Assembly: GCA_020341755.1 (NCBI GenBank)
Contig: CP070834.1
Location: 1-56,436, forward strand
Length of the DNA stretch: 56,436 bases
Source: a candidate division WOR-3 bacterium
GTDB lineage: Bacteria > Hydrothermota > Tepidihabitantia > SM23-42
Reading direction: 5' to 3'
The notes under the pieces were generated by a model, which made no database searches, was not told the origin of the DNA, and saw only the letters and a list, made by a program, of their open reading frames with translations. Of the stretch, positions 8,991 to 46,549 are shown in pieces. Position 1 is the stretch's first letter. Every line of letters starts with the position of its first letter. The translations under genes were made by a program, and so were the position numbers.

Positions 8991-9048
8991 CATCGTTGTT
9001 CATAGCACAGTGTTCGGGCACGATCACACACTTCTGTAAGGAGGTTAT

Positions 9049-9525
9049 ATGAAAATATTGATCGGCTATTACTCACGATCGGGTCATACAAAAAAAATGG
9101 CGGACGCGATCGCCCGGGGTGTTAAAAAAGAGAATATCACGGTCGCGGTCAAGACATTCGACCGTATCACCGTCGATGAGCTGCTTGATTACGAGGCGAT
9201 CATTTTCGGCTCACCTACGTACTATGGTCTCATGGCTGCCGAGGTGAAGCGATTATTCGATGAGAGCGTAAAAATCCATGGCAAGCTTTCCGGGAAAGTC
9301 GGCGGCGCCTTCTCATCGAGCGGCATGATGGGCGGCGGCGGTGAAACGACGATCATGAGTATTTTAGAGGCATTTATGGTACATGGTATGATCATCGTCG
9401 GTGATGCTCGGCTTCAGCATATGGGACCGCTGGCGATCGGGGATCCAGACGGGAATGCGATCGATACCTGTGAAAAATACGGGCAGAAGATCGCCGAACT
9501 GGCAAAAAAGGTCTTCACGGAGTAA
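9049..9525 (+). CDS. Flavodoxin-like fold protein (WrbA/NAD(P)H:quinone oxidoreductase-like)
   Basis: MKILIGYYSRSGHTKKMA N-terminus and GSPTYYG motif. AGGAGG-type SD upstream. Confidence 0.8.
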   Translation: MKILIGYYSRSGHTKKMADAIARGVKKENITVAVKTFDRITVDELLDYEAIIFGSPTYYGLMAAEVKRLFDESVKIHGKLSGKVGGAFSSSGMMGGGGETTIMSILEAFMVHGMIIVGDARLQHMGPLAIGDPDGNAIDTCEKYGQKIAELAKKVFTE

Positions 9526-9535
9526 GTATCCTGTA

Positions 9536-10201
9536 TCAATCCTGTAAAACGGGATATCCTACCGACTGGGCAAGGATTATTTTCTGATCGGTCTTCAGCG
9601 CCAATTTCTCGGCGAGCATGTCGCGATCCACAAGCCCGCGCACGACCGTAGCCAGTCCCTCTGATGCACAGAAAAGATACACGTTCTGGCTGATAAAACC
9701 GGCATCGGCTGCCGAGTAGAATGTTTTCTGATCCTCTGCCGCACCATGCATACGAGAAAAATCGGCAATATACACGAGATTGACCGGTACCTTCGCCACG
9801 AAAGACTGCGAACCCGTACAGGACCGTATATCCTCGGCAAGTATCGGCACCAGCACATGTTCGGCGGCATCGTAGAAATAGCAGCCCCTTTCCAGGCAGA
9901 CATAGATATCTATTTCCTGCCAGTTCCGCGCCGACGGAGCCGTACGTTTGCCAGACTCTGACCGGTTCACGCCAAAGGCTGCCCAGAGCAAGTTTGACAA
10001 TACCTGGTCTGATAACGTGTCCTCACGGAACGATCTCGTCGATCTTCGTTCGTTCAACACCTCCATCAATGGTCTGCCGCCCGTGTTCTCGGGTGCTGGA
10101 AGATAGAGTGTGTCCAGGTCCGTTGAGGTAAGCATCATGGGTACTGCCAATCCCCATATGCATAATACCCCGAGCCGTACCAAACAAGTTCTAGAGTTCA
10201 T
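9536..10201 (-). CDS. Nitroreductase-family (SagB-type) oxidoreductase with N-terminal signal/TM segment
   Basis: RRSTRSF ... LLWAAFGVNR motifs typical of the nitroreductase fold. Confidence 0.75.
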   Translation of the reverse strand: MNSRTCLVRLGVLCIWGLAVPMMLTSTDLDTLYLPAPENTGGRPLMEVLNERRSTRSFREDTLSDQVLSNLLWAAFGVNRSESGKRTAPSARNWQEIDIYVCLERGCYFYDAAEHVLVPILAEDIRSCTGSQSFVAKVPVNLVYIADFSRMHGAAEDQKTFYSAADAGFISQNVYLFCASEGLATVVRGLVDRDMLAEKLALKTDQKIILAQSVGYPVLQD

Positions 10202-10233
10202 TGTGTTCCTCCTTGTGTCCGCTACCGTAATGC

Positions 10234-10698
10234 TTACAGCTTACGGTGAACGATATATGCCGCTGTATTTTTGTAGACGGTCTGCTCAAGCAGCGACCAT
10301 CCTCCGGCAGTATAGAACGGAATATGCCGGTGGTTCAGCGTGTACAGGTATAATCGATCGAGACCGAGCTTTTGTGCTTGTTCGATGCCCCTATCCACCA
10401 ACACCCTTCCGACTCCCTGGACTCGACAGTGTGCACACACGTACAACGATGCAAGCCACGGTGAATACTGAGGCCTGGTATCCATATCGTGTATTTTTAG
10501 ACTCACCGTGCCTATAACCTGACTCTTATCGAGTGCCACGAGGGCCAGTGGCAGAACGGTTTTGTGTGTTCGAGCCCTGAACCGGTCCTCGATATCCTGG
10601 ACCGTCAATTCAGGATAGAACCATCCCCATTCACGATGAAACCACTTCGCGATCGCGGATATCTGGTCTTGATGATCTTTCAAGAAACCTATTTCCAT
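10234..10698 (-). CDS. GNAT-family N-acetyltransferase
   Basis: VQGVGRVLVDRGIEQAQKLG acetyl-CoA binding motif, ~150 aa. Confidence 0.8.
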   Translation of the reverse strand: MEIGFLKDHQDQISAIAKWFHREWGWFYPELTVQDIEDRFRARTHKTVLPLALVALDKSQVIGTVSLKIHDMDTRPQYSPWLASLYVCAHCRVQGVGRVLVDRGIEQAQKLGLDRLYLYTLNHRHIPFYTAGGWSLLEQTVYKNTAAYIVHRKL

Positions 10699-10720
10699 AG
10701 TATTGAGTTACTGTTAACAG

Positions 10721-10748
10721 ATTGTATGCACTCGCGTATAGGTGTCAA
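10721..10748 (-). promoter_or_regulatory. Sigma70-type promoter for GNAT/nitroreductase operon
   Basis: Minus strand reads TTGACA (10748-10743), 16 nt, TACAAT (10726-10721). Confidence 0.65.
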
Positions 10749-10783
10749 CCGGACACTATGATGTCTGCACATACATTCGACCC

Positions 10784-10811
10784 TTGACAATGTCCGCTGC
10801 GTCATTATAAT
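10784..10811 (+). promoter_or_regulatory. Perfect consensus sigma70 promoter driving an unannotated ~130-nt RNA / leader
   Basis: TTGACA 10784-10789, 16 nt, TATAAT 10806-10811. Divergent from the GNAT promoter. Confidence 0.7.
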
Positions 10812-10817
10812 GCAGGG

Positions 10818-10949
10818 TCATGAATAGAACAGAAAATCGTTATTCAGTGTCAAACGTTATTGTGATCCTCAACGAGGGCCGAATGCCGCCCTGGTAAACA
10901 GGTTTGTACAGGCAAAGGCCCATCATGATAATGATGGGTCTTTTTTTTT
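10818..10949 (+). ncRNA. Candidate small RNA or riboswitch-like leader (family not recognised)
   Basis: Bounded by the consensus promoter and an intrinsic terminator. Contains hairpin TGAATA(10821-26)/TATTCA(10841-46). Also contains mutually exclusive pairings AGGGC(10875-79):GCCCT(10888-92) versus GGGCC(10876-80):GGCCC(10917-21), the latter invading the terminator stem. Confidence 0.45.
10919..10949 (+). terminator. Rho-independent terminator
   Basis: CCCATCAT-GATA-ATGATGGG stem-loop followed by TC and a T9 run (10941-10949). Confidence 0.8.
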
Positions 10950-10979
10950 ACCCACCCATACGGTGGAAAGGAGAATACT

Positions 10980-11150
10980 ATGAAAGATCAAACGTGGGAC
11001 GACCGGTTCACTGCCGAGGGTATACCCATGACCGCTCCGACTAACGCGGGCATGACAGGATCCCAGGTCTGGCAGTATGAACATCAAAAATGGAAAGACG
11101 GTCGCGATCGAAACAAAACCGAACCGCAGATGGCATGCCGTTCGTCTTAA
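10980..11150 (+). CDS. Small hypothetical protein, 56 aa (MKDQTWDDRFTAEGIPMTAPTNAG...)
   Basis: Below the ORF-track length cutoff. GGAAAGGAG SD lies 7 nt upstream of ATG 10980. My own translation ends at TAA 11148-11150. No family recognised. Confidence 0.45.
   Translation: MKDQTWDDRFTAEGIPMTAPTNAGMTGSQVWQYEHQKWKDGRDRNKTEPQMACRSS

Positions 11151-20898: not shown

Positions 20899-20902
<4 letters not shown>
19769..20902 (+). CDS. FAD-dependent oxidoreductase (DAO family; sarcosine oxidase beta / glycine oxidase-like)
   Basis: AIIIGGGIIGCAAGYYLSRKG dinucleotide-binding motif, ~377 aa. Confidence 0.8.
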
Positions 20903-22004
<1,102 letters not shown>

Positions 22005-22191: not shown

Positions 22192-22223
22192 AACACAAAA
22201 TATGACAACACAAAGGAGTGCTT

Positions 22224-23264
22224 ATGTTTGGGAGAAAGAAAAAGGTTATCGGGCTTGACATTGGATCCAGTCAAACCAAGATGGTGGAGTTGAGTTCTGG
22301 TAAGGGTAAAAAATTGCTAAATTACGGAATTTCAAAAGTATTACCTGATGCGATCGTTGAAGGCGAAATAATTGACCGGGAAGCAGTGCTCGATTCGGTC
22401 CGGAGCCTCATTGAAAGTAAAGGCTTTACAACCAAGGATGTTGTCATCGGCATTGCAGGCAGAGATGTCATAATCAAACGCATTGCTATGGATCGTATGA
22501 GTGAAGCCGATACCAAAGAACAGATCAAATGGGAGGCAGAACAGTATGTTCCCTTTGATATCAATGAGGTGACGCTCGATTTCGATGTTGTAAATCCCAA
22601 CTTTGGTGAGAACCAACAGGAAGTCATACTGGTCGCTGCGAAAAATGAACTCATAAACAACCTCACCGTCCTCTTGCGCGAACTCAACCTCAATCCAATC
22701 ATCGTTGATACGACTGCCTTTGCCGTCCAGAATGTTTTTGAGTATAATTATTCACCTCCACCAGATGAAACAACCTGTTTGATACATATCGGTGCGGGAA
22801 TGACCGTGATAAACGTGGTCAAAGCCGGTTCATCTCTGTCGGCTCGAGATGTATACTACGGAGTGAACGCGTTCATCAGTAAACTTCAGAAAGAAGTTGG
22901 TTTTAATTATGAAGACGCCGCGAATGCCGTTAAAGGAACTATCCCTGTCGGCGCGTCTCAGGATTCCGTACAGGGAGTCTTCGAAACATTCGTGGGTGAT
23001 CTGGGTACCCAGATCGAACGCAGTCTTCAGTTTCTTTCGAGTGTCACAGGTGAAGAAAAAGTTTCCCGCATGTATCTCTCAGGAGGTGGCTCACTAATTC
23101 CTAATCTCTTAGACTATTTAAAAAGAAGGCTTGGGGTGCCAATCGAATTACTTAATCCGTTCAAGAACATCGTGTATGATCCCACTATTTTTGGCCCTGA
23201 AGGAGCTGATGTCGTGGGACCGATACTTGCCCAAGCCTGTGGTTTGGCCCTAAGGGGGGAATGA
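22224..23264 (+). CDS. pilM: Type IV pilus assembly ATPase-like protein PilM
   Basis: VIGLDIGSSQTKMVEL actin-like fold N-terminus. AAGGAG lies 5 nt before ATG 22224. The track begins at GTG 22218. Confidence 0.88.
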   Translation: MFGRKKKVIGLDIGSSQTKMVELSSGKGKKLLNYGISKVLPDAIVEGEIIDREAVLDSVRSLIESKGFTTKDVVIGIAGRDVIIKRIAMDRMSEADTKEQIKWEAEQYVPFDINEVTLDFDVVNPNFGENQQEVILVAAKNELINNLTVLLRELNLNPIIVDTTAFAVQNVFEYNYSPPPDETTCLIHIGAGMTVINVVKAGSSLSARDVYYGVNAFISKLQKEVGFNYEDAANAVKGTIPVGASQDSVQGVFETFVGDLGTQIERSLQFLSSVTGEEKVSRMYLSGGGSLIPNLLDYLKRRLGVPIELLNPFKNIVYDPTIFGPEGADVVGPILAQACGLALRGE

Positions 23265-23869
23265 TGATAAAGATAAATTTGACGCCAAGTGCCAAAAAAG
23301 GACGCGTCCCAAAGCGCAAGGCACCGAGGGCAGCACGACCGGGCATCAAACTCCCAGCGATTCAGACGACACTCATCTATATAATCGGTATTGTCGTCGT
23401 GGTCGTCATCGCCGGAGCCCTCTATTTTATACAGGTGAATCAGATCGGAAGCCTCAATAGAAATATCACACAATTAGATGCAAAACTTGAGGAACTGAAG
23501 GTTTACAAGGCGACCGTCGACAGTCTCGAACGGCGCGAACGAGAACTGGCCGGACTGATTGCTCCCATAAAAGAACTTAATAAGAACAGATTCTTCATTG
23601 CCCACGTTCTTGATGAGATCGCCGGACGGATCCCGGAGTTCACCTGGCTCTCATCACTGAATATTACACAGGCGAACATGAATCTCCAGGGGATAACCGC
23701 ATCTAATCTCCTCGTTGCCGAATTCATGAACCGACTCGAAGAATCTCCGTACGTATACAGCGTCGATCTAACAGTACTGGAAAAGAAGACGGTAGAGAAT
23801 GAAGAGATGATGCAATTCACCTTAACAGCAAATGTCGGGGTCACAACACCAATCAAGGGGCTACAATGA
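23261..23869 (+). CDS. pilN: Type IV pilus assembly protein PilN
   Basis: Single TM after a basic N-terminus, coiled coil, position after pilM, ATGA overlap. Confidence 0.8.
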   Translation: MMIKINLTPSAKKGRVPKRKAPRAARPGIKLPAIQTTLIYIIGIVVVVVIAGALYFIQVNQIGSLNRNITQLDAKLEELKVYKATVDSLERRERELAGLIAPIKELNKNRFFIAHVLDEIAGRIPEFTWLSSLNITQANMNLQGITASNLLVAEFMNRLEESPYVYSVDLTVLEKKTVENEEMMQFTLTANVGVTTPIKGLQ

Positions 23870-24438
23870 ATCTGAGAGAATCAAAAACACAACAACTTGT
23901 TTTATTCTTTTTCATCCTGATACTTCTGCTGGTCGTTTTCTTCCTCGTTCCCCACAAGAATAATAGGGTGAAAATAGCACAGTTGACATCGACCAGAGAC
24001 TCACTCCAGATCGAGGTGCAGAAGGCGGAACAGGCACGAGCACGTCTTCCTGAGCTTCAGGCAAAAATCGCGCGACTCGAGATAGAGTGGGAGAAAGCCC
24101 AGGAGATGTTACCGCAAGAAAAAGAAATCCCGTCGCTCATCCAGCAGATCTCGAATTCTGGAACCAAAGCAGGGGTGAGTTTCCTGCTGTTCAAACCGAG
24201 CGGTCCCGTGCAGAAACAGAATTATTCGGAAATACCCGTCCAGATTAAAGTTCAGTGCGGGTATCATCAGCTGGGTAAATTCTTGAGCAACATCGGCAAT
24301 CTCGCACGGATCGTCAACGTGCCGTCGGTTAAGATAAAAACCGGACAAAAAAAGAGCATTGAAGCAGATTTAAGCGCAATTACCTACACAGTAGCAAGAG
24401 GAAAGGAGGTGCAGCGTGCTGTCCCACCTCGTAAGTAA
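23866..24438 (+). CDS. pilO: Type IV pilus assembly protein PilO
   Basis: Single TM, coiled coil, conserved operon position. Confidence 0.78.
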   Translation: MNLRESKTQQLVLFFFILILLLVVFFLVPHKNNRVKIAQLTSTRDSLQIEVQKAEQARARLPELQAKIARLEIEWEKAQEMLPQEKEIPSLIQQISNSGTKAGVSFLLFKPSGPVQKQNYSEIPVQIKVQCGYHQLGKFLSNIGNLARIVNVPSVKIKTGQKKSIEADLSAITYTVARGKEVQRAVPPRK

Positions 24439-24826
24439 CGTCTTAGTTCAAGTAATGCTCATATCCCAAGTACCAGCAGAGCCAATGGAGATGGATACGC
24501 TCTTCCCGGTTGAGAAATGGGAATATAAACAATCGGGACGCAGAGATCCATTCGTTCCACTGCTCGGTTTGAGTTTATCAGGTGGTGGAAAATCTGGACA
24601 CCTGAGCGTCGAAAACCTAACACTGGTTGGTGTCCTGTGGGGCGACCGAGGATACTACGCACTGGTCAAAGACGGGCAGAACAAAGGTTACATTCTTAAG
24701 AAAGGTGATAAGGTTGCCAGTGGCAGAGTCACCGAGATTAGTCGTCGTGCTATAAATTTCGAAATAGTCCATGCAGGTGTCAAGACAAAATATGAATTAC
24801 CGCTCCAAGAGAAGGAAAGGAGGTAG
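24416..24826 (+). CDS. pilP: PilP-like pilus assembly protein
   Basis: RRDPFVPL motif and position between pilO and pilQ. Confidence 0.65.
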   Translation: MLSHLVSNVLVQVMLISQVPAEPMEMDTLFPVEKWEYKQSGRRDPFVPLLGLSLSGGGKSGHLSVENLTLVGVLWGDRGYYALVKDGQNKGYILKKGDKVASGRVTEISRRAINFEIVHAGVKTKYELPLQEKERR

Positions 24827-24829
24827 AAT

Positions 24830-26428
24830 ATGAGGTATGTTGTTATCCTCACATTAGCAATATCATTGGCAGCTGGTGCGGTTATCACAGATTTAGCAGT
24901 CGAAGCAGAAGGAGTCAATACAAAATTAATTATCAAGGCGGACGCACCATTTGTTGCCACTACGTACACGCTCAAAAACCCTCCCCGAATAGTGGTAGAT
25001 TGCTCGGGTGTGACCAGCGAACTCGTTGGCAAGCGCTATATGGTACACAAAGGCGGTCTGCAGCAAGTTTCTGTCACGAGTTTCACCGAGCAGGCCGACC
25101 TCATCCGTATCGTGGGGACACTCGATAGCGATTATTCCTATCTAACACTGACCGAAGGCAACGACTATGCGATCACGCTGCTTACTGGACTGACATCACC
25201 GTTCGCCGGATGGCAGGCATCCATGAGTTCTGAAGTCACAACCGCACCGTCGGACGTGACGAGCCCGCCGGTCACTCCGCCAACTGCACCATCGGTCACG
25301 ACGGGACGACCGATTTCTTTCAATCTCGAGGATGCACCGATCATAAGTGTACTGCGTCTGTTGGCAGAATATGTCGGTATCAATATCGTTGCCGGTAAAG
25401 ATGTGACCGGTACGGTCACCGTCAGGTTGCACAATGTACCCTGGCGTCAGGCACTCGAGATCATCTTGAAAGCAGCCGGTTATGCCTACCGAGAAGATCC
25501 TGGCGTGATCCGGGTCGATACTGCCGAAAATCTCGACAAACAGGATTACGATCTACCAACAACTTCCAAGATTTACAAACTCGAATTTGCCGATCCCCAG
25601 GATATGCTTGCCAAGATCCAGGCAATGCTCTCTCCGAAAGGCAAAGCAAACGTCGATACACGAACAAACTCAGTGGTGGTAACGGAAGTTGCACCGGTAC
25701 ATGATAAGATAAAACAACTCGTTAAACTTCTCGATACACCGACACCTCAGGTCGAGATCATGGCAAAGGTTGTGGACATCGACGTATCGGCATCCCAGGG
25801 ACTGGGTATCGACTGGACACTCAAGGGACTGCAGTCGAGGATCGTGAGGGCAGAGGTCACGAGTAATGCACTGCCCGCAATATCCGGCTTTGGTCAATTC
25901 AATATCGCAACCGTGCCATCGCTTGCGCAGATCAATGCGGTCATCAATCTCCTCGAGGAGAACGGCAAGGCGCAGACAGTCAGCGCACCACGAATAGCGG
26001 CGGCAGATAACGAAGACGCAAAGATCCTTGGTGGACAGCGTTTCGGTATCCCCACGCGCGACCTCTCGGGCAACACCGTCGTGCAGTTCTATACGGTCGG
26101 TACAAAACTCGAGGTTACGCCGCATATTAACAGCCTCGAAGAGATCACCATGGAAATCCATGCCGAGGTCAGTGAACTCGACCGTGCATCGGCTCTCGCC
26201 GGTAGACCGATCATCACGACCTCTGAAGCCGATAGCAAGGTCCTGGTGAAGGACGGTAATACCGTCGTCATCGGAGGATTTATCCGCAGGAAAGAAACAA
26301 AATCTGAACGAGGCATACCCGTGCTCAAGAGCATACCTATACTCGGTGTTCTGTTCCGGGAAACGACAACCACGGTGGAGGATCGCGAACTGCTTATCTT
26401 CATTACGCCGACCATTATAAAGGGCTGA
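24830..26428 (+). CDS. pilQ: Type IV pilus secretin PilQ (AMIN domain + secretin)
   Basis: Signal peptide, AMIN-like N-terminal domain, T/P-rich linker, and C-terminal secretin motifs (VVIGGFIRRKET...GIPVLKSIPILGVLF). Confidence 0.88.
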   Translation: MRYVVILTLAISLAAGAVITDLAVEAEGVNTKLIIKADAPFVATTYTLKNPPRIVVDCSGVTSELVGKRYMVHKGGLQQVSVTSFTEQADLIRIVGTLDSDYSYLTLTEGNDYAITLLTGLTSPFAGWQASMSSEVTTAPSDVTSPPVTPPTAPSVTTGRPISFNLEDAPIISVLRLLAEYVGINIVAGKDVTGTVTVRLHNVPWRQALEIILKAAGYAYREDPGVIRVDTAENLDKQDYDLPTTSKIYKLEFADPQDMLAKIQAMLSPKGKANVDTRTNSVVVTEVAPVHDKIKQLVKLLDTPTPQVEIMAKVVDIDVSASQGLGIDWTLKGLQSRIVRAEVTSNALPAISGFGQFNIATVPSLAQINAVINLLEENGKAQTVSAPRIAAADNEDAKILGGQRFGIPTRDLSGNTVVQFYTVGTKLEVTPHINSLEEITMEIHAEVSELDRASALAGRPIITTSEADSKVLVKDGNTVVIGGFIRRKETKSERGIPVLKSIPILGVLFRETTTTVEDRELLIFITPTIIKG

Positions 26429-29701: not shown

Positions 29702-30781
29702 ATGAATGAAACGTTCGACCTTATCCATTTACTCACGGTCGAAAAACTGACCGAAACGAAACTACTCACACTTCTGGAGAAATTCAAGACTCCAGCAGCA
29801 ATAAAAAATGCGCCGACGGGCACCGTCGCCGAACTCGTCGGAAAAAATATCGCCTCCATGATTGCTTCGCTGAAGATAGATGATACGGTTAAACGTCGAT
29901 ACGAACTCGTCCAGCGGCTCAACATCCGTGTCGTTACGTATACCTCACCGTGGTACCCCGCATGGCTGAGGACCGTCGATCACTTCCCGCCGGTCCTGTT
30001 CATTAGGGGTGAAATTACCGCCGCTGATGAGACGGCAGTCGGCGTAATAGGTACGCGGGGCGCTACGGTTTACGGCAAGCATATTGCCGAGACCTTTTCA
30101 GAAACGTTTGCCCGGGCACGGGTGACCGTGGTGAGTGGCATGGCACGGGGTGTCGATACAGCCTCCCATAGAGGCGCGCTCAAGGCCGGCGGACGTACCA
30201 TTGCGGTTCTGGGGTGCGGCGTTGACCGGTGCTATCCACCCGAGAACAGAAAATTGATGGACGAGATAATAATGAGCGGTGCGGTCATCTCTGAATTCGC
30301 GGTCGGTACACCACCGCGGCCCCAGAATTTTCCAAAACGGAATCGCATTATTTCCGCTCTATCGAAAGCGATCGTCGCTATCGAAGCAAAAGAAAAGAGC
30401 GGGGTCATGAATACGGTAAGCTGGGCTGTACAGCAGAACAAAGACGTCTATGCGATTCCCGGGAACATCTACTCACGAACGTCGACCGGGACCAACCGGC
30501 TCATCAAAGAAGGCGCCATCCCGGTCACTTCGGCTGAAGAGATCCTTGAGCTCATGGGCATTACACACCAGGCAGTAGCATTAGATGAAAAACAGATATC
30601 GCTCACAGAATCCGAGCAGACCGTATGGGACCACTTGACCTGCGAGCCGATCTATCTCGATGTGCTTTCAGAAAAACTAGATCAACCGACCGGTTCGATC
30701 CTCAATGTCTTACTGGGGTTGGAAATAAAGGGATTGGTGCGGCAACTTCCCGGAATGATGTTCGTAAAGAATTTCGAGTAG
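29702..30781 (+). CDS. dprA: DNA-processing protein DprA (Smf)
   Basis: VVSGMARGVDTASHRGAL Rossmann-like DprA core and a C-terminal winged-helix-like tail. Confidence 0.88.
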   Translation: MNETFDLIHLLTVEKLTETKLLTLLEKFKTPAAIKNAPTGTVAELVGKNIASMIASLKIDDTVKRRYELVQRLNIRVVTYTSPWYPAWLRTVDHFPPVLFIRGEITAADETAVGVIGTRGATVYGKHIAETFSETFARARVTVVSGMARGVDTASHRGALKAGGRTIAVLGCGVDRCYPPENRKLMDEIIMSGAVISEFAVGTPPRPQNFPKRNRIISALSKAIVAIEAKEKSGVMNTVSWAVQQNKDVYAIPGNIYSRTSTGTNRLIKEGAIPVTSAEEILELMGITHQAVALDEKQISLTESEQTVWDHLTCEPIYLDVLSEKLDQPTGSILNVLLGLEIKGLVRQLPGMMFVKNFE

Positions 30782-33441: not shown

Positions 33442-33469
33442 TTGACAGAGTAGAAGGCACCCGTATAAT
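33442..33469 (+). promoter_or_regulatory. Perfect consensus sigma70 promoter for the TonB-dependent receptor block
   Basis: TTGACA 33442-33447, 16 nt, TATAAT 33464-33469. AAGGAGG SD before ATG 33491. Confidence 0.7.
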
Positions 33470-36080: not shown

Positions 36081-36527
36081 ATGGAAGTATTTATGAGAGA
36101 ATCTTGTTCATTAAAGAACCACAGGTACGCAGCTTGTATTATAATAGTTTTAATAAGCATATCGATTCTGGCGTGCCGGGACCCACAAGATTTCCAGCCA
36201 GATGACCCGTACACAGAAGCACCTGCGCCGCCCGACTTCATATATCCGCTCCCGGACACGACGGTCAATGGTACGGTGGTCAGTGTCTATTTCAGCTGGA
36301 ACGCAGTTGCCAGGGCAGAATCGTACGAGATACAATACGACACGTCTTTGACCTGGCCCAGTGACTGGCGGCAGACCGCGACCGCATCACCGTGTTATAT
36401 CTCGGTACGCCGATATGCTTATACCACGGTGTATTACTGCCGCATTCGTGCGCTCAGCGCATCCTGGCTGGAGGGACACACCGAGTGGTCGCAAACAAGA
36501 AAGTTCTTCGTAAAACCTGAGGGATAA
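36081..36527 (+). CDS. Fn3-like lipoprotein, paralog A
   Basis: Lipobox ISILAC. PDDPY...WNAVARAESYEIQYDTSL...YYCRIRALSASWLEGHTEWSQTRKFFVKPE aligns closely with the next gene. Confidence 0.7.
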   Translation: MEVFMRESCSLKNHRYAACIIIVLISISILACRDPQDFQPDDPYTEAPAPPDFIYPLPDTTVNGTVVSVYFSWNAVARAESYEIQYDTSLTWPSDWRQTATASPCYISVRRYAYTTVYYCRIRALSASWLEGHTEWSQTRKFFVKPEG

Positions 36528-36593: not shown

Positions 36594-37013
36594 TTGAGGA
36601 AGAAAATCATCTGGACATGCTTTGCGTTGTATATGGCTCTGGCACTGAGTTGTAAGGACCCGACCGGCTATGAACCTGACGATCCCTATGTTCCTACGCC
36701 TGATCCGCCGACCATTGTGTATCCCGTCGCTGATACATCATTCAATGCTACAATCGGAGTACCGATCATGGTCCTGTTCGACTGGACCGCGGTCTCAGGT
36801 GCAGAAGCATATGAAATACAGCACGATACCGCACTAACCTTCCCCACAGATACGAGTGATGTCGTCCAGGCAGCACCTGCGTACCTTGCGTTTTACCGAT
36901 ATACCTATATCACCACCAGTTACTACAGGATCAGAGCGCTCAGTGCTTCGTGGGAAGAAGGGCATACCGAATGGTCGGAAACACGGAGATTTTATATCAA
37001 ACCAGAATCCTGA
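36594..37013 (+). CDS. Fn3-like lipoprotein, paralog B
   Basis: Lipobox ALALSC. PDDPY...WTAVSGAEAYEIQHDTAL...YYRIRALSASWEEGHTEWSETRRFYIKPE. TTG start after AGGAGG. Confidence 0.7.
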   Translation: MRKKIIWTCFALYMALALSCKDPTGYEPDDPYVPTPDPPTIVYPVADTSFNATIGVPIMVLFDWTAVSGAEAYEIQHDTALTFPTDTSDVVQAAPAYLAFYRYTYITTSYYRIRALSASWEEGHTEWSETRRFYIKPES

Positions 37014-37037
37014 TGTATTGTCTTGGAGATCATGAGT

Positions 37038-37889
37038 ATGACCCTTGGCGAGCCTGTCTTTCTGCGTAATTTAAAACTATTCCCGATCCATGACGACCAC
37101 CCCTCTTCGGGTAACGGCAACTATACCACTGTTGATGAAGTGCTGAAGTCTAAAAAAGGAGCATTTCACGAACTCGATACTCCCGACATCAACACGATCA
37201 GTTTCGAGAATGATTCTGACTCACCGGTCGTCATGATCGATGGCGAGGAAATCACCGGAGCATTCCAGAACCGCATCATCGCTGCGTCATCCCTCGTTGA
37301 GAGCCACACTTCCCGTGAGCTAGCCGTAATCTGCGCAGAGGAAGGACGTTGGAACGAGATCGGCGGCTTTCGCAGCGGACAGTGTTCGTATCCCCGGCTG
37401 CGTTCGGTCTTGGCCAAATCCCGTAGTCAGAAAAAGGATGCACAGCAGCATGTCTGGAACGAGATCGAAAGAAAACTGACCGTCACGAAGACCCGTTCGA
37501 CAACATCATCCATGCATGACATCTTTGTCTCGCTCGATGACGAAGTCCATCGTTACCTGGAAGGATTCACGGGTCTCGATGGTCAAACGGTCGGCTTCAT
37601 AGGCTGTGCCGGTGACCGCATTCTCGGATGTGATATTTTCTGCCAACCCTCGCTGTACCGCAATTTTGAAAAAAAACTCATCAGAAGTTATGCACTCGAT
37701 GCACTCGAATACCAACGGACTGCGAACCGCCCACTGGATGTCACTCGTTTCCTTGACAGCATTAGCAAAGCGCTTCACGCCAGAAGTATCCGCAGACGTC
37801 ACATGCACATAACGACGAAGATTGTGAGAGGACAGGCCCTCGTGCACAATAAGCGACCCGTCCATGTTTCGGCGTTCCCTGCACGGTGA
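37038..37889 (+). CDS. ARPP-1 / DUF6569-like protein (assignment from remembered motif pattern)
   Basis: NLKLFPI, VVMIDGEEITGAFQNRI, ICAEEGRWN, VWNEIERKL, GQTVGFIGCAGDRILGCDIF and KLIRSYALDALEY follow the motif order I associate with this family. The start is ambiguous (TTG 37023, ATG 37032, ATG 37038). GGAG lies 9 nt before 37038. Confidence 0.6.
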   Translation: MTLGEPVFLRNLKLFPIHDDHPSSGNGNYTTVDEVLKSKKGAFHELDTPDINTISFENDSDSPVVMIDGEEITGAFQNRIIAASSLVESHTSRELAVICAEEGRWNEIGGFRSGQCSYPRLRSVLAKSRSQKKDAQQHVWNEIERKLTVTKTRSTTSSMHDIFVSLDDEVHRYLEGFTGLDGQTVGFIGCAGDRILGCDIFCQPSLYRNFEKKLIRSYALDALEYQRTANRPLDVTRFLDSISKALHARSIRRRHMHITTKIVRGQALVHNKRPVHVSAFPAR

Positions 37890-37934
37890 AACGCTTCACC
37901 CTGCAGGATGTTACCATAAACGACCCCTCATGCC

Positions 37935-40472
37935 ATGCTGGCGAAGAAACTCGGTAAGTACGAAATAATAGATTGGCTCGGGGGCGGTCGGTTTGGTGAT
38001 GTCTTTCTTGCCCGTGATACACTGCTCGATCAACAGTTCGCTCTGAAGATCGCCCGAATGAGAAAAGAAGAAATATCCATGCTACAGGATGAGGCGAAGC
38101 TCCTGTCCGGGCTCAATCACGTCGGGATCGTACGCTTCTACAATATCGATTTCATCGATGAAAAATTCGTCCTGGTGATGGAGTATGTGAAGGGAGCGTC
38201 GTTGCGTGAGATCATACCGGAACAGGGGCTTACAGTGGACCAGGCATGCTCGATCGGTCAACAAATTTCTGACGCGGTAGCATACGCCCATAATAAAAAG
38301 GTACTTCATCGTGATCTCAAACCCGAGAACATCCTGCAGGAGGGTTCCGGAGAGCCCGTGGTGAAGATAACAGACTTTGGTCTGGCGCGCTTCATAAAAT
38401 CAGGTTCACTCTCGGCATCGACGGCAGGAACACCGATCTATATGGCGCCAGAGGTATGGTCTGGTGATTTTTCTGACAGATCTGACATATGGAGCATTGG
38501 CGCTATACTCTATGAAATGCTCACCGGCGTGCCGCCATTTCTCTCGGACAATCTAACCGACTTGCAGCGAAAAATCGAGATGAATAAATTCCTCCTGCCG
38601 ACAATGGTTCGTTCAGCCGTTCCGGAGTACCTGGAACATATCATAGCAAAATGTCTGAAATCCAATCCCGATGCACGACCAACAGCCGAGGAATTGTCCG
38701 CGATGATGAACTATCAGGGGACTCCGATACGGGTTACGCCGGCCATTCGTGGAACCGAAAAAGAATCCCCCGCCTTGGATCTCACACCAGCCCAGCGGGA
38801 AATAATGGAATCTGTACCAGGAAAAGTACTGCTCCTGGGGCAGGCTGGTTGTGGCAAAACAACCACACTCACCCACGCAGTCCTCAAACTGCTGGACAGT
38901 GGCGTTCCCGATTCCAACATCCTCATCTCCACGTTCACCAACAAAGCGGCTCATGATATTAAAAACAGGCTCACCCGGCACATCGGAACCGTTTCACATG
39001 AGCTATGGCTGGGAACACTACACACCCTGGCACTGAGAATACTGCGTCGTGATGCCGCGCGGCTTGACCTGAGCGATGACTTCACGATCGTGCATCCCGC
39101 AGATGTTGTATCGGGGATGAAAACCAAACCAGGGAAGCATCAGGTACGAGCTATGCTCCAGTACATCGGCAAGCTAAAAGCCCACAATATTCTCCCTGAA
39201 CGGTTTACCCCAAAAACCAAATGGGAAAAAGCGTGTCACCTGTTTTACCGCCAATACCAGGATCGCCTGTCAGCGGGCAGCATGGCCGACTTCGATGATC
39301 TCATCATATTGGCGGTGCGCCTTCTCCAGGACCACGAGGATGTACGTTCATTCTATCAGAACCGGTTCAATCATGTTTTTGTTGACGAACTGCAGGATAT
39401 CAACCCTGCTCAGTATCGCTTGATCACGCTCCTGGCGGACAGTTCGGTATTCATGACCGGTGATGAGGATCAATCGATCTATGGATGGCGGGGAGCGGAT
39501 AGAACTATCCTCCATCATGTCGATGATGATTTTCCCGGCATCAAGACCTTTACCCTGACAAAAAGTTTCAGGCTGCCGCAGGCGATACTCGAAATAGCAA
39601 ACCATCTCATGCTCCGCAGTGCAACCGCTGTCCCGACATATGAAACCGGTGATATCCTGGTATATGCAGCCAAGACCGAGAATGACGAGGCGAACTATAT
39701 TATCAATGAAATTAAACGCCTGACAAAAAAACAATTCAGCTATGGTGATATCGCGGTACTCTACCGCGTTAATTACATATCGCGAATCTATGAAGAGGCC
39801 TTTGTCAAGGCACGCATTCCCCATACATTGATCGGCGGTTCCTCATTTTATGACCGTTCTGACATAAAACCGCTGATAGAATATCTAGAGTTGATCGAAC
39901 GTCGTGCAGCGGAAACTCCATCTCCTAAAGAAAATACCGGGACGTTACTTCCTCTTGCACTTGCCCTGTTTAAGATCGGCAAGCAGAAAAAAGACCGTGC
40001 TGCCGCAATCATAACGTACCATCTTGAGCATCGCAACATGCTTGCGCCGGCACGCGTGATCGGTGATATCGTCGATGTGGTCGGGCTGCGCGGTGAGAAC
40101 ATCGATGAACTCATAGCGCTTGCCCGAGGATTCAGTCATCTCGGACTCTCGGATTTTCTCAATGAAGTTCGCCTCGTGCAGGAACTGGATCTGTCTGAGT
40201 GGGGTAAGAATACGGTCAAACTGCTGACCGTCCATAGTGCAAAGGGTCTCGAGTTCCCCGTAGTGTTCCTTGTCGACCTGATCGAAGATGTCTTCCCGCT
40301 CACCAAGAAAATGGCGTCCGGAGAGGACATCGACGAAGAACGGCGGCTGTGTTATGTAGCGCTCACCCGTGCGCAGAAGAAACTATACCTCCTCTACCCG
40401 AAAAGGAGATATGGTCGTTTTCAGCAACCGTCCCGTTTCCTGCTCGATATGTTCAAAAAGGATACACAGTAG
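37935..40472 (+). CDS. Fusion protein: N-terminal Hanks-type Ser/Thr protein kinase + C-terminal UvrD/Rep-family SF1 helicase
   Basis: Kinase motifs: LGGGRFGDVF, FALKIA, HRDLKPENIL, DFGLARF, GTPIYMAPE. Helicase motifs: GQAGCGKTT (Walker A), FVDELQDINPAQ (motif II), TKSFRLPQ, TVHSAKGLEFPVVFL, CYVALTRAQKKLYL (motif VI). One uninterrupted 845-aa ORF. Confidence 0.85.
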   Translation: MLAKKLGKYEIIDWLGGGRFGDVFLARDTLLDQQFALKIARMRKEEISMLQDEAKLLSGLNHVGIVRFYNIDFIDEKFVLVMEYVKGASLREIIPEQGLTVDQACSIGQQISDAVAYAHNKKVLHRDLKPENILQEGSGEPVVKITDFGLARFIKSGSLSASTAGTPIYMAPEVWSGDFSDRSDIWSIGAILYEMLTGVPPFLSDNLTDLQRKIEMNKFLLPTMVRSAVPEYLEHIIAKCLKSNPDARPTAEELSAMMNYQGTPIRVTPAIRGTEKESPALDLTPAQREIMESVPGKVLLLGQAGCGKTTTLTHAVLKLLDSGVPDSNILISTFTNKAAHDIKNRLTRHIGTVSHELWLGTLHTLALRILRRDAARLDLSDDFTIVHPADVVSGMKTKPGKHQVRAMLQYIGKLKAHNILPERFTPKTKWEKACHLFYRQYQDRLSAGSMADFDDLIILAVRLLQDHEDVRSFYQNRFNHVFVDELQDINPAQYRLITLLADSSVFMTGDEDQSIYGWRGADRTILHHVDDDFPGIKTFTLTKSFRLPQAILEIANHLMLRSATAVPTYETGDILVYAAKTENDEANYIINEIKRLTKKQFSYGDIAVLYRVNYISRIYEEAFVKARIPHTLIGGSSFYDRSDIKPLIEYLELIERRAAETPSPKENTGTLLPLALALFKIGKQKKDRAAAIITYHLEHRNMLAPARVIGDIVDVVGLRGENIDELIALARGFSHLGLSDFLNEVRLVQELDLSEWGKNTVKLLTVHSAKGLEFPVVFLVDLIEDVFPLTKKMASGEDIDEERRLCYVALTRAQKKLYLLYPKRRYGRFQQPSRFLLDMFKKDTQ

Positions 40473-40481
40473 AAACGCCTG

Positions 40482-41108
40482 CTACATCATTTTTCTCTTT
40501 CTGACATACAGGATAATTAATATGGCTGCCAGTGGAATGAGGGCGGCGGTCACGATGAGGTTGTACTGTTTGAGAAAACGTGCGGCTTCCTGCCAGGACG
40601 AACCAACATAGAACCCTGCGGATACCAGGAAGAGATTCCACAGCATAACACTCAGAAGGCTCAGCCAGAAAAACACGGTACTCTTCACATCGACCATACC
40701 TGCAGCAAAACAGATCGGCGCACGCATGCCCGGCAGGAAACGGTTGAGAAAGACGACTACCGGACCGCGCCGAGAAAATGCCCTCTGCGCCCTTTCGATC
40801 ATCTTGAGTGGAAAGAACCTGCTCATCCATGATGTGGTCATTATGTGAACAAGCCGCTCGCCCTTTTTCTTACCCAGCCAGTACAATATCATGATACCGG
40901 TTATGCTTCCAATGACCGTACCGAAATATACTGCAAAGGGATTAAAACTTCCACGACCGGCAAGGTAGGCAAAAATGAGTACGACCGCATCTGACGGGTA
41001 GGGAGGGAAAAGGCTCTCGACGCATGCATTGCACAGCAGGAACAGATAGACGACGAGGGGATCTCGACCAGCTATCCAATCAAATACAGAAACGAGCCAA
41101 TCAAACAC
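40482..41108 (-). CDS. DedA-family (VTT domain) membrane protein
   Basis: ESLFPPYPSDAVVLIFAYLAG and FLPGMRAPICFAAG motifs, multiple TM helices. Confidence 0.82.
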   Translation of the reverse strand: MFDWLVSVFDWIAGRDPLVVYLFLLCNACVESLFPPYPSDAVVLIFAYLAGRGSFNPFAVYFGTVIGSITGIMILYWLGKKKGERLVHIMTTSWMSRFFPLKMIERAQRAFSRRGPVVVFLNRFLPGMRAPICFAAGMVDVKSTVFFWLSLLSVMLWNLFLVSAGFYVGSSWQEAARFLKQYNLIVTAALIPLAAILIILYVRKRKMM

Positions 41109-41195: not shown

Positions 41196-42926
41196 TCATA
41201 AAGTAATATCAAGCTGGACGCCGATATGTTTTTCCAGGGCAGCCTCTTGGTCGCGGAGTGAATATTTTATGCTGAATTTCAAACCATCTATCGGTTTAGC
41301 CGACAGGTAAAGAAATCCATAGTAACCGCTGTAGTATAACATTCGATTATTGATGATACCTGGCAGATCGATCTCGTAGGCGTAAATGCGCGAGGCATAT
41401 GAATCCGTGTCGAAATGACCGAACCTCACCCGGAGGTCCCACCGCCGGAAATCCAGACCGCATTCCAGAGCCCCAAACAGTCCTCGTTCGAGTACGCCGT
41501 CTTCATATACGTATTTATCCTCGAGCCGGACATCGAAGAAGAATACCCGGAACGGTTTAACCCGGAAGAAAACCCGTGAACCCGAGCGCTGGCTTTCATC
41601 TTCGGTAAACCGCCAGCGCAGCTGCAGTTTCGCATAGGCGATACCCAGCGAACGTTCGACACTCACCTGTACACCATAGCGTTGTGGATCCTCATCTGTG
41701 GCGTCGTCAAGGGTGAAGAGGAAACCGATATCTGCGATCGGTAGATGACCATCCACCGCGAGTTGACCGCCGACATAATCATCGCGAGCCTCGATTCCTT
41801 TTGGAGAGTAAAATCCAGCCGGGAAGTATTTAGCCGCGAGATTGACATCCAGTATCGAATAATATCCGCTGATCCCGAAAACACCCCCGACCCGATTGCG
41901 GAACGAACGTGCGCACTCAGCGAACATAACCATTAACTCATCATTATATTTCAAACCGACGCTGGTAAGCCAGAATCTGGAGCCGTAAAATTTTGCGCTC
42001 GAATCATCACACACAAAACCAGGAGTGTATGAGCACCAGTATGTTCTATTCGCGATCTCCCACTGCGGCTGTCGATACGTAACATTATACCCGATAATTT
42101 CCTCATTGATCCTGTCCTTCTTAGCTTCTGTCAGGGAATCGACATGGTCGCCCGAAAGATAAAACGAGGTCGCGTTACCTGCACTGTCGACGGTCCCGTC
42201 CATATCCTGGTTCGAATAGAACAGGGTGTAGCCTATCACAGACGTATCGCTCAGCGCCGCGCCAAAGAACCCACTATTTTCGTTCACCGAGGTATACGGC
42301 AGAACACCACGTTCTTTCGTGAGCACGCGGAAATCAACCGTTTGGAAAAAAGACCCCAGGGGCGACAGCGCAACACCCGACCCGAAATCGAGATTATATT
42401 TGCCCAGTACGAAAGAACGCCCGCCATCCGTGTGCAAGATACCTCCTGCATAATAATCGAACAGATTATCCTCCAGAGGATCTCTTTCCGTAAGAAAATA
42501 TACGTGATATCCGCCCAGATATACTTCTGACCGTGTATAGTACTCATGGACTGCTTGTTCCGATGGGATATCGGTCGTGCCGCGCATTCTCATCGAAAAT
42601 TTCTTGAACTCCAGAGACTTCCTTCCGACGGTCACGTAGGATCTGATACGTTCGATAAACATGTTATCGATACCGGGGATATTCTTCAGGTCATCCAACG
42701 AATGATATGGCCCATGAGCCTGGCGGTACTCGATGATCCTCATACAATCGGACACCGTAAAATAAGGAATGGCACCAAGTTCCTCAAGGCCTGCTGTATT
42801 GATGTCGACCGGTCGGAGCATCAGATATTCAAGGTCGCGAACGATTATTTCCAGGTCTCGTGGATCGTCGGTCTGGAACAGTTCGTGACCATCGACAGAC
42901 AGGACGATGAGGAACAGAATTATCAT
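41196..42926 (-). CDS. ComEA-like helix-hairpin-helix domain fused to a large predicted beta-barrel/beta-rich domain
   Basis: INTAGLEELGAIPYFTVSDCMRIIEYRQAHGPYHSLDDLKNIPGIDNMFIERI (tandem HhH). The remaining ~470 aa are rich in alternating aromatic/Gly beta-strand patterns. ATGA overlap with the upstream gene. Confidence 0.65.
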   Translation of the reverse strand: MIILFLIVLSVDGHELFQTDDPRDLEIIVRDLEYLMLRPVDINTAGLEELGAIPYFTVSDCMRIIEYRQAHGPYHSLDDLKNIPGIDNMFIERIRSYVTVGRKSLEFKKFSMRMRGTTDIPSEQAVHEYYTRSEVYLGGYHVYFLTERDPLEDNLFDYYAGGILHTDGGRSFVLGKYNLDFGSGVALSPLGSFFQTVDFRVLTKERGVLPYTSVNENSGFFGAALSDTSVIGYTLFYSNQDMDGTVDSAGNATSFYLSGDHVDSLTEAKKDRINEEIIGYNVTYRQPQWEIANRTYWCSYTPGFVCDDSSAKFYGSRFWLTSVGLKYNDELMVMFAECARSFRNRVGGVFGISGYYSILDVNLAAKYFPAGFYSPKGIEARDDYVGGQLAVDGHLPIADIGFLFTLDDATDEDPQRYGVQVSVERSLGIAYAKLQLRWRFTEDESQRSGSRVFFRVKPFRVFFFDVRLEDKYVYEDGVLERGLFGALECGLDFRRWDLRVRFGHFDTDSYASRIYAYEIDLPGIINNRMLYYSGYYGFLYLSAKPIDGLKFSIKYSLRDQEAALEKHIGVQLDITL

Positions 42927-45356: not shown

Positions 45357-45779
45357 ATGGATAGTGATACCTTCCTCCAGGTAAAAAAGAATCTCACAAA
45401 AAATATCGATGAAATCAAAGAGACGTTAAAAAGAAAAAATCTCCTTAACGCTCCGGACACGGGAAAGACCATTGAACGGATGAAGTACCTCCTGTACAGT
45501 ATTACCAAGACGCTTATCGATATCGGTCACAGTATTATGCTAGAGAAAGACCTGCTCCCGCCACGTAATCGTGCAGATATCTTTATTTGCCTTGCCGAAC
45601 TCGAGATCATCATGTCGAATATCGTTCCCGGTGTGAAGAAAGCGGTCATCGCATTCCCAAAGATGAACACGTATTCACCGGAAGACACCGTCCGTCTTGT
45701 AACGTCAAGCATCGGAGATCTTCATGCCTGCCTTGATTCATTTGCTGCTTACTTTGCGGTCAGAGATACAACGATATGA
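45357..45779 (+). CDS. DUF86 (HepT/YutE-like, HEPN-superfamily) protein lacking an obvious RxxxxH motif
   Basis: The helical pattern ...LLYSITKTLIDIGHSIMLEK...PRNRADIFICLAELEII resembles YutE-type DUF86. ATGA overlap with pilD. Confidence 0.5.
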   Translation: MDSDTFLQVKKNLTKNIDEIKETLKRKNLLNAPDTGKTIERMKYLLYSITKTLIDIGHSIMLEKDLLPPRNRADIFICLAELEIIMSNIVPGVKKAVIAFPKMNTYSPEDTVRLVTSSIGDLHACLDSFAAYFAVRDTTI

Positions 45780-46549
45780 ATATTATCTTTGTCGTATTTG
45801 CATTTCTCTTCGGCGCGGCGATCGGGAGTTTCCTCAATGTCATCATATACCGGCTGCCGCTTGGTGCCTCCATCGTTGCACCGCGATCGTTCTGTCCTCA
45901 CTGCAAGAAACCCATCCCGGCAAAGGAAAACATCCCCATCCTCAGCTATATCCTTCTTAAAGGTAGATGTTCGGGCTGCGGGACATCCATATCCATCCAT
46001 TATCCTGCCATTGAACTCATAACCGGCGTTCTCTTTGTGTATTTCTATTTACGATATAATATAAGTCTTGAATTCTTCGCGTATGTTACCTTCAGCTGTG
46101 CGCTCATTATCATATCGGGTATCGATTTTTCTTTCCAGATCATTCCCGATGTGATTTCCATACCGGGTATTTTCGCAGGATTGGTATTTCAGCTTGCGAA
46201 GGGGAATTTCCTTCCGGCACTGGTTGGCGCCATCTTCGGAGGCGGACTCATCCTTCTTATTCGTGTCGTGGGGGGAAAGGTTTACAAGAAAGAGGTCATG
46301 GGTATGGGCGATGTATATCTCACAGCAATGATCGGAGCGTTTGTCGGATGGCCGCTCATTATTGTCGCCGTATTCCTGGCTGCCCTGACCGGCTCAATTC
46401 TAGGTATTATCTTTATAGTATCAACGCGCCAGAGCCGTGAGAGTCCCATTCCGTTTGGTCCTTTCCTGAGTATCGGAGGGCTCGGAGTAATCGTCTTTTA
46501 TTCCATCATCATAAAATTCTTTGCTATGCTCGGTGTCTATCTCCGTTAA
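45776..46549 (+). CDS. pilD: Prepilin peptidase / N-methyltransferase (A24 family)
   Basis: GSFLNVIIYRLP, the CPHC...CSGCG zinc motif, GMGDVYL catalytic Asp, multiple TM helices. Confidence 0.9.
   Translation: MNIIFVVFAFLFGAAIGSFLNVIIYRLPLGASIVAPRSFCPHCKKPIPAKENIPILSYILLKGRCSGCGTSISIHYPAIELITGVLFVYFYLRYNISLEFFAYVTFSCALIIISGIDFSFQIIPDVISIPGIFAGLVFQLAKGNFLPALVGAIFGGGLILLIRVVGGKVYKKEVMGMGDVYLTAMIGAFVGWPLIIVAVFLAALTGSILGIIFIVSTRQSRESPIPFGPFLSIGGLGVIVFYSIIIKFFAMLGVYLR

Follow-up and report, generated by a model that had tools for sequence, protein, structure and literature searches.

Do an ARPP-1 protein and a protein kinase fused to a DNA helicase, encoded side by side in a bacterium of the uncultured phylum WOR-3, make up an antiviral conflict system, or do they serve the upkeep of the genome? 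The question is raised by two adjacent genes on a stretch of 56,436 nucleotides (nt) from a candidate division WOR-3 bacterium (GenBank assembly GCA_020341755.1, contig CP070834.1, positions 1 to 56,436 of the forward strand; this whole 56-kb stretch is referred to as the window). The upstream gene encodes a member of the ARPP-1 family (Pfam PF20208, DUF6569); the downstream gene encodes, in a single open reading frame (ORF) of 845 amino acids (aa), a Hanks-type Ser/Thr kinase followed by a UvrD-type helicase. The original prediction, made from the sequence alone, had regarded the pair as a candidate conflict (anti-phage) or nucleic-acid surveillance system. A surveillance role is plausible; the conflict-system framing was not upheld, as the genes lie in a syntenic core context, diverge at an ordinary rate, are co-inherited, and had no viral copies in the contigs scanned. 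The reading preferred here is that the pair is a vertically inherited, functionally coupled DNA-maintenance or surveillance module of WOR-3, and not a mobile defence cassette; its chances of being correct are considered about even.

Linkage and inheritance of the pair

Starting from ARPP-1, a metagenome scan yielded 58 loci, 53 of them with at least 34% ARPP-1 identity, and 48 of those reach at least 150 nt downstream, which makes them testable for linkage. A kinase domain is encoded directly 3′ of ARPP-1 in 47 of the 48, at a distance from the ARPP-1 alignment of 2-177 nt or, in three loci, of 757-1207 nt. In the single exception (L110), the sequence stops right behind an IS200-like insertion; L104 carries a copy with 100% identity, and there the fusion gene comes next. 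An IS200/Y1-transposase-like gene that has entered the spacer accounts for the long gaps as well as for the exception. Starting from the fusion, 7 of 12 lineages have ARPP-1 next to it (L001, L082, L083/84, L143, L147, L148, and L150). The linkage, which the original prediction had named as a test, is thus conserved and not a matter of chance. The spacer, exactly 45 nt in the window as originally measured, varies in related loci from a 4-nt overlap up to ~90 nt.

Three kinds of observation argue for functional coupling of the two genes over leftover synteny. The flanking genes can be replaced entirely while the pair is kept, as in L082, in L148 (where it lies beside rpsL-rpsG-fusA), and in L150 (beside fusA/CutA); it is also kept in L132-L137, next to TldD/PmbA, MgtC or SurE. 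The gene order can be inverted, with the fusion preceding ARPP-1 and ARPP-1 preceding either a polysaccharide deacetylase (L143, also L138 and L139) or a phospholipase D (PLD)-like protein (L147). Finally, in L083 and L148, the two coding sequences share 1-4 nt.

In 37 loci, the distance matrices of ARPP-1 and the fusion were correlated with r = 0.935, a value reached by 0 of 2000 Mantel permutations. This correlation demonstrates co-inheritance; taken alone, it does not distinguish co-evolution from common descent.

The fusion is represented by more than 120 clusters at 90% identity, made up of full-length homologues of about 790-875 aa (nearly all 830-875 aa) that are 47-96% identical to the protein from the window and, where named, stem from candidate division WOR-3 or TA06; clusters of the divergent branches are likewise labelled WOR-3. 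Homologues of ARPP-1 come from the same sources (181 matches; 49-92% identity among the 120 listed), and the contigs carrying them often agree in length with those of the fusion. A scan of genome contigs with the fusion alignment keyed on the generic motifs HRDLKPEN and TxHxAKGxE, and the matches listed were ordinary PcrA/UvrD loci of other phyla (L002-L081). In a neighbour-joining tree of the helicase parts (computed without support values, and with stand-alone, Tudor-bearing PcrA-like helicases of other phyla as the outgroup), all fusions form one group. Lineages linked to ARPP-1 occur in several branches of this tree, including the basal P0282, and one clade (P0257, P0260, and P0263) has no adjacent ARPP-1. 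As judged from these sequences, the fusion family appears to be WOR-3-specific and of a single origin; the simplest reading is one early fusion event and an early partnership with ARPP-1, with ARPP-1 later lost or moved elsewhere in some branches. No viral copy of ARPP-1 was found in a scan of viral contigs, nor was there a viral structural match in BFVD.

Two features of individual lineages were observed beside the linkage itself. The IS200/Y1-transposase-like gene lies in the spacer of four loci (L086:2128-2883, L092:3061-4266, L104:6850-7687, and L110:6853-7725); the copies are 64-100% identical between loci, short tandem-looking repeats flank the one in L092, and the insertion resembles a repetitive extragenic palindrome (REP)-associated, RAYT-like element recurring at one site. 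In the inverted-order lineages, the third gene is that of a PF01522 polysaccharide deacetylase 14 nt 3′ of ARPP-1 (L143:11432-12079) or that of a PLD-like (SACK1/PLDc_2) protein overlapping ARPP-1 by 4 nt (L147:4706-5500); both may represent a variable third component.

The ARPP-1 protein and the kinase-helicase fusion

The features of the two genes in the window are the following, all on the + strand:

37025-37028: GGAG ahead of the ARPP-1 start (sequence)
37032..37889: ARPP-1 (PF20208/DUF6569) gene, 285 aa (full-length Pfam match, AlphaFold2 model)
37239..37355: conserved core DGEE..GAxQNR and CxExxRW of ARPP-1, putative active site (alignments)
37266-37268: codon of ARPP-1 Q78 (residues numbered from the Ser codon at 37035)
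37332-37334: codon of ARPP-1 C100 (same numbering)
37503..37517: TSSMH motif of ARPP-1, residues 157-161 (same numbering; alignment)
37890..37934: spacer between ARPP-1 and fusion, 45 nt (coordinates)
37935..40472: kinase-helicase fusion gene, 845 aa (ORF, Pfam, homologues)
37959..38699: Hanks-type Ser/Thr kinase domain, residues 9-255 (Pfam Pkinase, E 2.1e-56)
38046-38048: kinase K38
38307-38330: kinase HRDLKPEN
38373-38453: kinase activation segment, DFG…APE
38700..38780: flexible linker between kinase and helicase, residues 256-282 (low model confidence, poor conservation)
38781..40469: PcrA/UvrD-type superfamily 1A (SF1A) helicase, residues 283-845 (Pfam UvrD-helicase and UvrD_C)
38838-38861: helicase Walker A
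39384-39398: helicase DELQD
39459-39497: helicase motif III
40227-40253: helicase motif V
40335-40370: helicase motif VI

In the ORF table, the ARPP-1 frame spans 37023..37889 (+) and encodes 288 aa if translation starts at TTG. There are three possible in-frame starts, TTG 37023 (288 aa), ATG 37032 (285 aa), and ATG 37038 (283 aa), and the length of 283-288 aa originally given for the protein is the span between them. ATG 37032 is the likeliest start because the nearest homologues among the matches listed have 285 aa.

Assignment of the protein to ARPP-1, as in the original prediction, was confirmed by a Pfam match over its full length (residues 2-281 on profile positions 2-297 of 297; E 2.7e-61, 207.9 bits at a cutoff of 27). 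The six motifs originally noted are all present and in the same order: NLKLFPI, DGEEITGAFQNRI, EEGRWN, VWNEIERKL, GQTVGF..GDRILGCDIF, and KLIRSYALDALEY. The core DGEE..GAxQNR plus CxExxRW is invariant in 91 members of the clade, and its residues are also invariant in the distant ARPP-1 proteins that are fused to HIRAN (L140) or stand alone (L141). Compared with these two, the ARPP-1 described here has kept the family-wide elements DGEE, GAxQNR, CxExxRW, DIF, SY, and HxSxFP. The absolutely conserved cysteine and glutamine of the family (Iyer, Burroughs, Anantharaman & Aravind, 2022; Viruses 14:1977, PMC9503650) are present as C100 (in ICAEEGRW) and Q78 (in GAFQNR), which places the protein within the family also by its putative catalytic residues. 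One motif sets the kinase-linked proteins apart: TSSMH occurs only in kinase-linked ARPP-1 clades, irrespective of gene order, and corresponds to THEMN in the HIRAN-fused and to TDAMN in the stand-alone form. In the alignment, conservation of S158, S159, and H161 is likewise restricted to the kinase-linked clades, and the motif is a candidate phospho-acceptor site (S158, S159) or interface. The AlphaFold2 model of ARPP-1, with a mean predicted local distance difference test (pLDDT) score of 83 and a predicted template modelling (pTM) score of 0.85, consists of β-sheets with helical inserts. No sequence relative of ARPP-1 was found in the PDB by sequence search; weak roadblock/Lamtor-like matches did not reach E ≤ 1e-3 and were set aside. 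No signal peptide was recognised on ARPP-1. In total, PF20208 comprises 7,586 representatives at 50% identity (E ≤ 1e-3), among which the kinase-linked clade is a small branch.

The fusion gene is one unbroken frame of 845 aa from ATG (37935..40472, +), and the claim that it combines a complete Hanks-type Ser/Thr kinase with a complete UvrD-type helicase stood up in every domain and motif. The Pkinase hidden Markov model (HMM) matches with 191.7 bits (cutoff 31.7), and the motifs K38, HRDLKPEN, DFG, and APE are complete and do not vary among 73 homologues; the HMM match and the catalytic Lys, HRD…N, DFG, and APE together make it a Hanks-type kinase. The UvrD-helicase model matches residues 283-534 (E 6.9e-64, 216.6 bits), and that of UvrD_C extends to residue 821 (E 4.1e-48, 165 bits). 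Walker A (GQAGCGKT), DELQD, GDEDQSIYGWRGA, TVHSAKGLE, and EERRLCYVALTR are present and invariant across the same 73 homologues, and by its HMM matches and these motifs (Walker A, DExQ, III, V, and VI), the protein belongs to the UvrD/Rep/PcrA SF1A superfamily. Both enzymatic halves of the fusion are thus intact as far as their sequences tell, and chance could not account for such agreement in domains and motifs. The linker between them is poorly conserved in the 73-sequence alignment. The AlphaFold2 model of the fusion (pLDDT 81, pTM 0.59) leaves the placement of kinase and helicase relative to each other undefined; the activation loop (residues 154-164) is disordered, and pLDDT is below 50 for linker residues 260-280.

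The helicase half, which still has the 1A/1B/2A/2B architecture in the model, is closest to PcrA/UvrD, and its nearest solved relatives are PcrA, UvrD, and Rep. Aligned with PcrA (1pjr; 318 bits), it covers only residues 12-403 and 507-640 of the 724 residues of the latter; the 2B region is ~40 aa shorter, the last ~85 residues of PcrA have no counterpart, and the C-terminal Tudor domain (PF21196) of stand-alone relatives is absent. A drastically truncated 2B domain was considered and ruled out, as just those ~40 aa are missing. Scores against the NCBIfam equivalogs are far below the cutoffs (PcrA TIGR01073, 423.8 versus 911.2 bits; UvrD TIGR01075, 346.9 versus 1144). Because of these scores, and with the Tudor extension lacking, the protein does not qualify as a PcrA or UvrD orthologue; by its sequence, the helicase is a PcrA/UvrD-type 3′→5′ SF1A motor that is not the canonical orthologue. 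The fusion may be the functional counterpart of PcrA/UvrD in its lineage.

Genomic neighbourhood and proposed function

The original prediction had described the neighbouring genes as housekeeping or envelope genes, and rightly so: core genes make up the whole window, among others those for PheS/PheT, ThrRS, Obg, MiaA, Cmk, MetK, AdoHcyase, DprA, PilMNO, a secretin, BacA, and YceG, and no defence or mobility genes were recognisable in it by Pfam scans. The order around the pair, AdoHcyase–MetK–TonB receptor–ARPP-1–fusion–DedA–ComEA-like–NfeD, is syntenic across WOR-3. It is still kept in the complete WOR-3 genome CP070664.1 (L001), the fusion of which is just 59% identical (AdoHcyase–MetK–TonB receptor–ARPP-1–fusion–…–DedA/VTT–ComEA-like helix-hairpin-helix [HhH] protein–238-aa ORF–NfeD–…–prepilin peptidase–MiaA), and many metagenome loci show this synteny as well. 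In the deep branches as well, housekeeping genes flank the fusion (e.g., rpsL-rpsG-fusA at L148). Across syntenic loci, identity to the window is 46-57% for ARPP-1 and 49-62% for the fusion, compared with 51-62% for the TonB receptor, 44-57% for DedA, 48-54% for the ComEA-like protein, and 74-79% for MetK. Since their divergence about equals that of the TonB receptor, DedA, and the ComEA-like protein, the two genes are not fast-evolving. The original prediction had itself named a conserved single-copy core gene pair without a phage or plasmid phenotype as an outcome that would speak against a conflict system; as regards conservation and synteny across WOR-3, this is largely what was found.

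Transcription may start well upstream of the pair, at the following element:

33442..33469, + strand: candidate operon promoter TTGACA-16-TATAAT (12/12 consensus match), 22 nt 5′ of the TonB-receptor start

A consensus scan, on which this call likewise relies, found no convincing + strand terminator between the genes from the promoter to the end of the fusion at 40472. Because of the perfect promoter and the lack of a convincing terminator, a five-gene transcript of receptor, two lipoproteins, ARPP-1, and fusion is possible.

These two small lipoproteins are encoded in tandem between the TonB receptor and ARPP-1 (36081-36527 and 36594-37013, +). They are paralogues (53% identical), each with a signal peptide and Cys and no Pfam match; most related WOR-3 loci have one copy at this place, and in L001 it is located downstream of the fusion. 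They probably belong with the TonB receptor. Receptor and lipoproteins had been considered as part of the module core, being directly upstream in many WOR-3 loci and possibly sharing a promoter; they were rejected because deeper lineages retain the pair without them. A DedA/VTT membrane protein gene (40482-41108, −) adjoins the pair in most WOR-3 loci (e.g., L083:9339-9944) and is still adjacent, on the other side, in deep-branch L136 (2605-3261). It was not adopted as a partner, being always on the opposite strand and not present in every locus. Competence-type genes near the pair, which encode PilM/N/O, a secretin, DprA, a 576-aa ComEA-like HhH protein, and a prepilin peptidase, lie at 22218-26428, 29702-30781, 41196-42926 (−), and 45776-46549. 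Farther away, tgt (queuine tRNA-ribosyltransferase) is split in two frames (20899-22004, +): the part at 20899-21450 corresponds to positions 2-166 (of 357) in the TGT profile, that at 21540-22004 resembles the C-terminal half by eye, and the split reflects a frameshift, a pseudogene, or an error in the assembly. An 812-aa ORF (1547-3985, −) had no Pfam match at E ≤ 1e-5.

For the DNA-maintenance module favoured above, a sequence of events can be proposed, the individual steps of which deserve much less confidence than the general reading. ARPP-1 is predicted to be an enzyme with a centre of invariant Cys, Gln, Glu, Arg, and Trp. The HIRAN domain binds DNA 3′ ends, and a HIRAN-ARPP-1 fusion protein was found in L140. 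ARPP-1 has thus been linked independently to two partners concerned with DNA ends or unwinding, HIRAN and a UvrD-type helicase, and for this reason it may well act on DNA. Its substrate, which it would recognise or process, might be a sugar-level lesion (for instance, an abasic or ADP-ribosylated site) or a DNA end (for instance, a stalled 3′ end). The helicase would load at this site and then unwind the DNA or strip proteins from it. The tethered kinase could turn this engagement into phosphorylation of its own activation loop, probably of ARPP-1 (with the TSSMH serines as candidates), or of other targets, and phosphorylation would in turn regulate or signal repair. One may go further and imagine a phylum-wide pathway of DNA-damage sensing and signalling in WOR-3, in which a helicase hard-wired to a kinase is a prokaryotic analogue of checkpoint-kinase signalling, ARPP-1 covalently captures or processes sugar lesions or 3′ ends via its invariant Cys, and the fusion may replace UvrD/PcrA; in this full form, the proposal is quite unlikely to be right.

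Several observations weigh against a coupled maintenance module. In 5 of the 12 fusion lineages (L144, L145, L146, L149, and L151), the flanks of the fusion do not contain ARPP-1, so that either the helicase-kinase can work alone or ARPP-1 is encoded elsewhere. Correlated distances are also expected from shared vertical descent alone. When the ARPP-1 model was compared with the PDB and BFVD by Foldseek, no structure matched at E ≤ 1e-3. The exchange of deacetylase for PLD-like protein behind the pair resembles, by analogy, the effector swapping of defence systems, and most of the described contexts of ARPP are predicted conflict systems (PMC9503650).

The last two points lead to the alternative that the pair is a fixed, domesticated innate-immune or conflict system that has become a core, vertically inherited gene pair in WOR-3. 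The UvrD-like helicase would then sense foreign or aberrant nucleic acid, the kinase would be effector or signal in the manner of Stk2 or PD-T4-6-type kinases, and ARPP-1 would counter or read ADP-ribose-type modifications. The family was defined in predicted antiviral systems centred on ADP-ribosylglycohydrolase (ARG), variable third genes follow the pair in two lineages, and both halves of the fusion match models of defence proteins domain by domain (PADLOC: GajB, E 1.3e-88; mad6, 8.7e-77; PD-T4-6, 1.2e-61). These PADLOC matches, however, stay at the domain level; there is none to a system, and none was obtained for ARPP-1 or the eight neighbouring genes scanned. The kinase scores far below the equivalog cutoffs (MADS6, 179.7 versus 460 bits; PglW, 99.1 versus 990), and GajA, a MADS partner, ARG, phosphatase, or WYL are not found nearby. 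Recognised defence genes, the proximity of which had been named as a test, adjoin the fusion in none of 11 of the 12 contexts inspected. The sole defence-like context, which speaks in favour of an immune system, is that of the ARPP-less fusion L151 (P0247), next to which a MjaV-like restriction endonuclease, an N6/N4 DNA methylase, and a small stand-alone protein with an HRDC domain are encoded (1239-1928 and 8965-11123). The distribution of the pair tracks lineage descent and is not patchy, its genomic context is that of the core genome, its evolutionary rate is ordinary, and no viral or mobile copies were found. A domesticated immune system is considered unlikely, although it is the main rival of the preferred reading. 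A mobile defence island or accessory locus is not what was found in the loci examined, given the same syntenic context and divergence and a window free of defence genes.

The neighbourhood suggests another function, namely, that the pair processes DNA taken up by natural transformation together with the uptake machinery encoded nearby. The competence-type genes listed above are no more than ~15 kb away from the pair, many WOR-3 loci share the synteny of the ComEA-like gene, and in basal L150, DprA is encoded ~5.7 kb from the pair. The uptake genes, however, differ from the pair in strand or operon, the flanks of L001 and of most other loci contain no DprA, and the association seems no stronger than general synteny; a role in transformation is very improbable. 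Still less can be said for unrelated functions of ARPP-1 and the kinase-helicase, with the two being neighbours by inherited synteny only. Vertical inheritance of both could explain the correlated distances and the adjacency in shallow clades, and the five lineages without adjacent ARPP-1 would fit, whereas adjacency outlasts complete turnover of the flanks and inversion of the gene order, coding sequences overlap in some lineages, and the TSSMH variant is confined to kinase-linked ARPP-1 clades. What remains preferred is the coupled, vertically inherited DNA-maintenance module.

Comparison with known systems

The association of ARPP-1 with the kinase-helicase is genuine, and both the context of ARPP-1 and the architecture of the PcrA/UvrD-type protein are new: in the literature searched, ARPP is described by Iyer et al. 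(2022) only, and neither this association nor any fusion of UvrD and Pkinase, an architecture affecting a central repair helicase, is described. ARPP-1 is a large family (~7,600 clusters at 50% identity) with no known activity or solved structure that has been discussed so far only in ADP-ribose conflict systems. The near-obligate partnership with a UvrD-type helicase across a phylum and the HIRAN fusions elsewhere point to a DNA substrate, which is a hypothesis amenable to biochemistry. The fusion would tie a Hanks kinase directly to DNA-repair machinery, an arrangement rare among bacteria. The locus also calls for caution, as a "defence-like" combination of domains can prove to be a vertically inherited housekeeping module.

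The closest precedents are the ARPP neighbourhoods described by Iyer et al. (2022). The name was derived from the association with ADP-ribosylglycohydrolase and rhodanese-phosphatase in predicted antiviral systems; three other two-gene contexts contain HIRAN, WYL, or a PF01522 deacetylase, and the protein was proposed to act on sugar moieties, possibly by SRAP-like covalent chemistry. UvrD or Ser/Thr kinase partners are not mentioned in that study (PMC9503650). Common to those neighbourhoods and the present pair are the PF20208 domain with its invariant Cys and Gln, and a tight two-gene unit with a nucleic-acid-binding partner; HIRAN-ARPP-1 in L140 and the PF01522 deacetylase after ARPP-1 in L143 are further points of contact. 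In contrast, the partner here is a Hanks kinase–UvrD fusion, and no ARG, rhodanese-phosphatase, WYL, or Nudix is encoded nearby. ARG-centred ADP-ribose systems are built around a gene for ADP-ribosylglycohydrolase, which is mostly accompanied by genes for a phosphatase (rhodanese-type or other) and for a Nudix or WYL regulator; membership in them was rejected because ARG, phosphatase, Nudix, and WYL are all missing from the 56-kb window and from the flanks, as annotated, at 12 related loci. Unlike the exported deacetylase pairs of Iyer et al. (2022), ARPP-1 is not preceded by a signal peptide here and belongs to the core genome, not to a conflict locus.

As to the fusion, it shares all helicase motifs and the modelled 1A/1B/2A/2B architecture with PcrA, UvrD, and Rep, and differs from them in its N-terminal kinase, the shorter 2B region (~40 aa), and the missing C-terminal Tudor extension (~85 aa). 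With Gabija, it has in common that its helicase half matches the GajB models of PADLOC. Gabija was nevertheless rejected: a GajA-like neighbour (the ATPase-TOPRIM nuclease) is present neither in the window nor in related loci, there is no defence island, and the helicase aligns well with PcrA, the scores for GajB and PcrA coming from different libraries and not being directly comparable. The kinase resembles those of Stk2, PD-T4-6, Mad6, and BREX PglW in being of the Hanks type and in its domain-level HMM matches; as these matches are confined to the kinase domain, do not reach the equivalog cutoffs, and are not accompanied by partner genes, the MADS, PD-T4-6, and BREX kinase systems were rejected as well. 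The claim that no known system combines all three domains has thus stood, both in PADLOC, where no system matched, and against the contexts compiled by Iyer et al. (2022), which do not include this combination.

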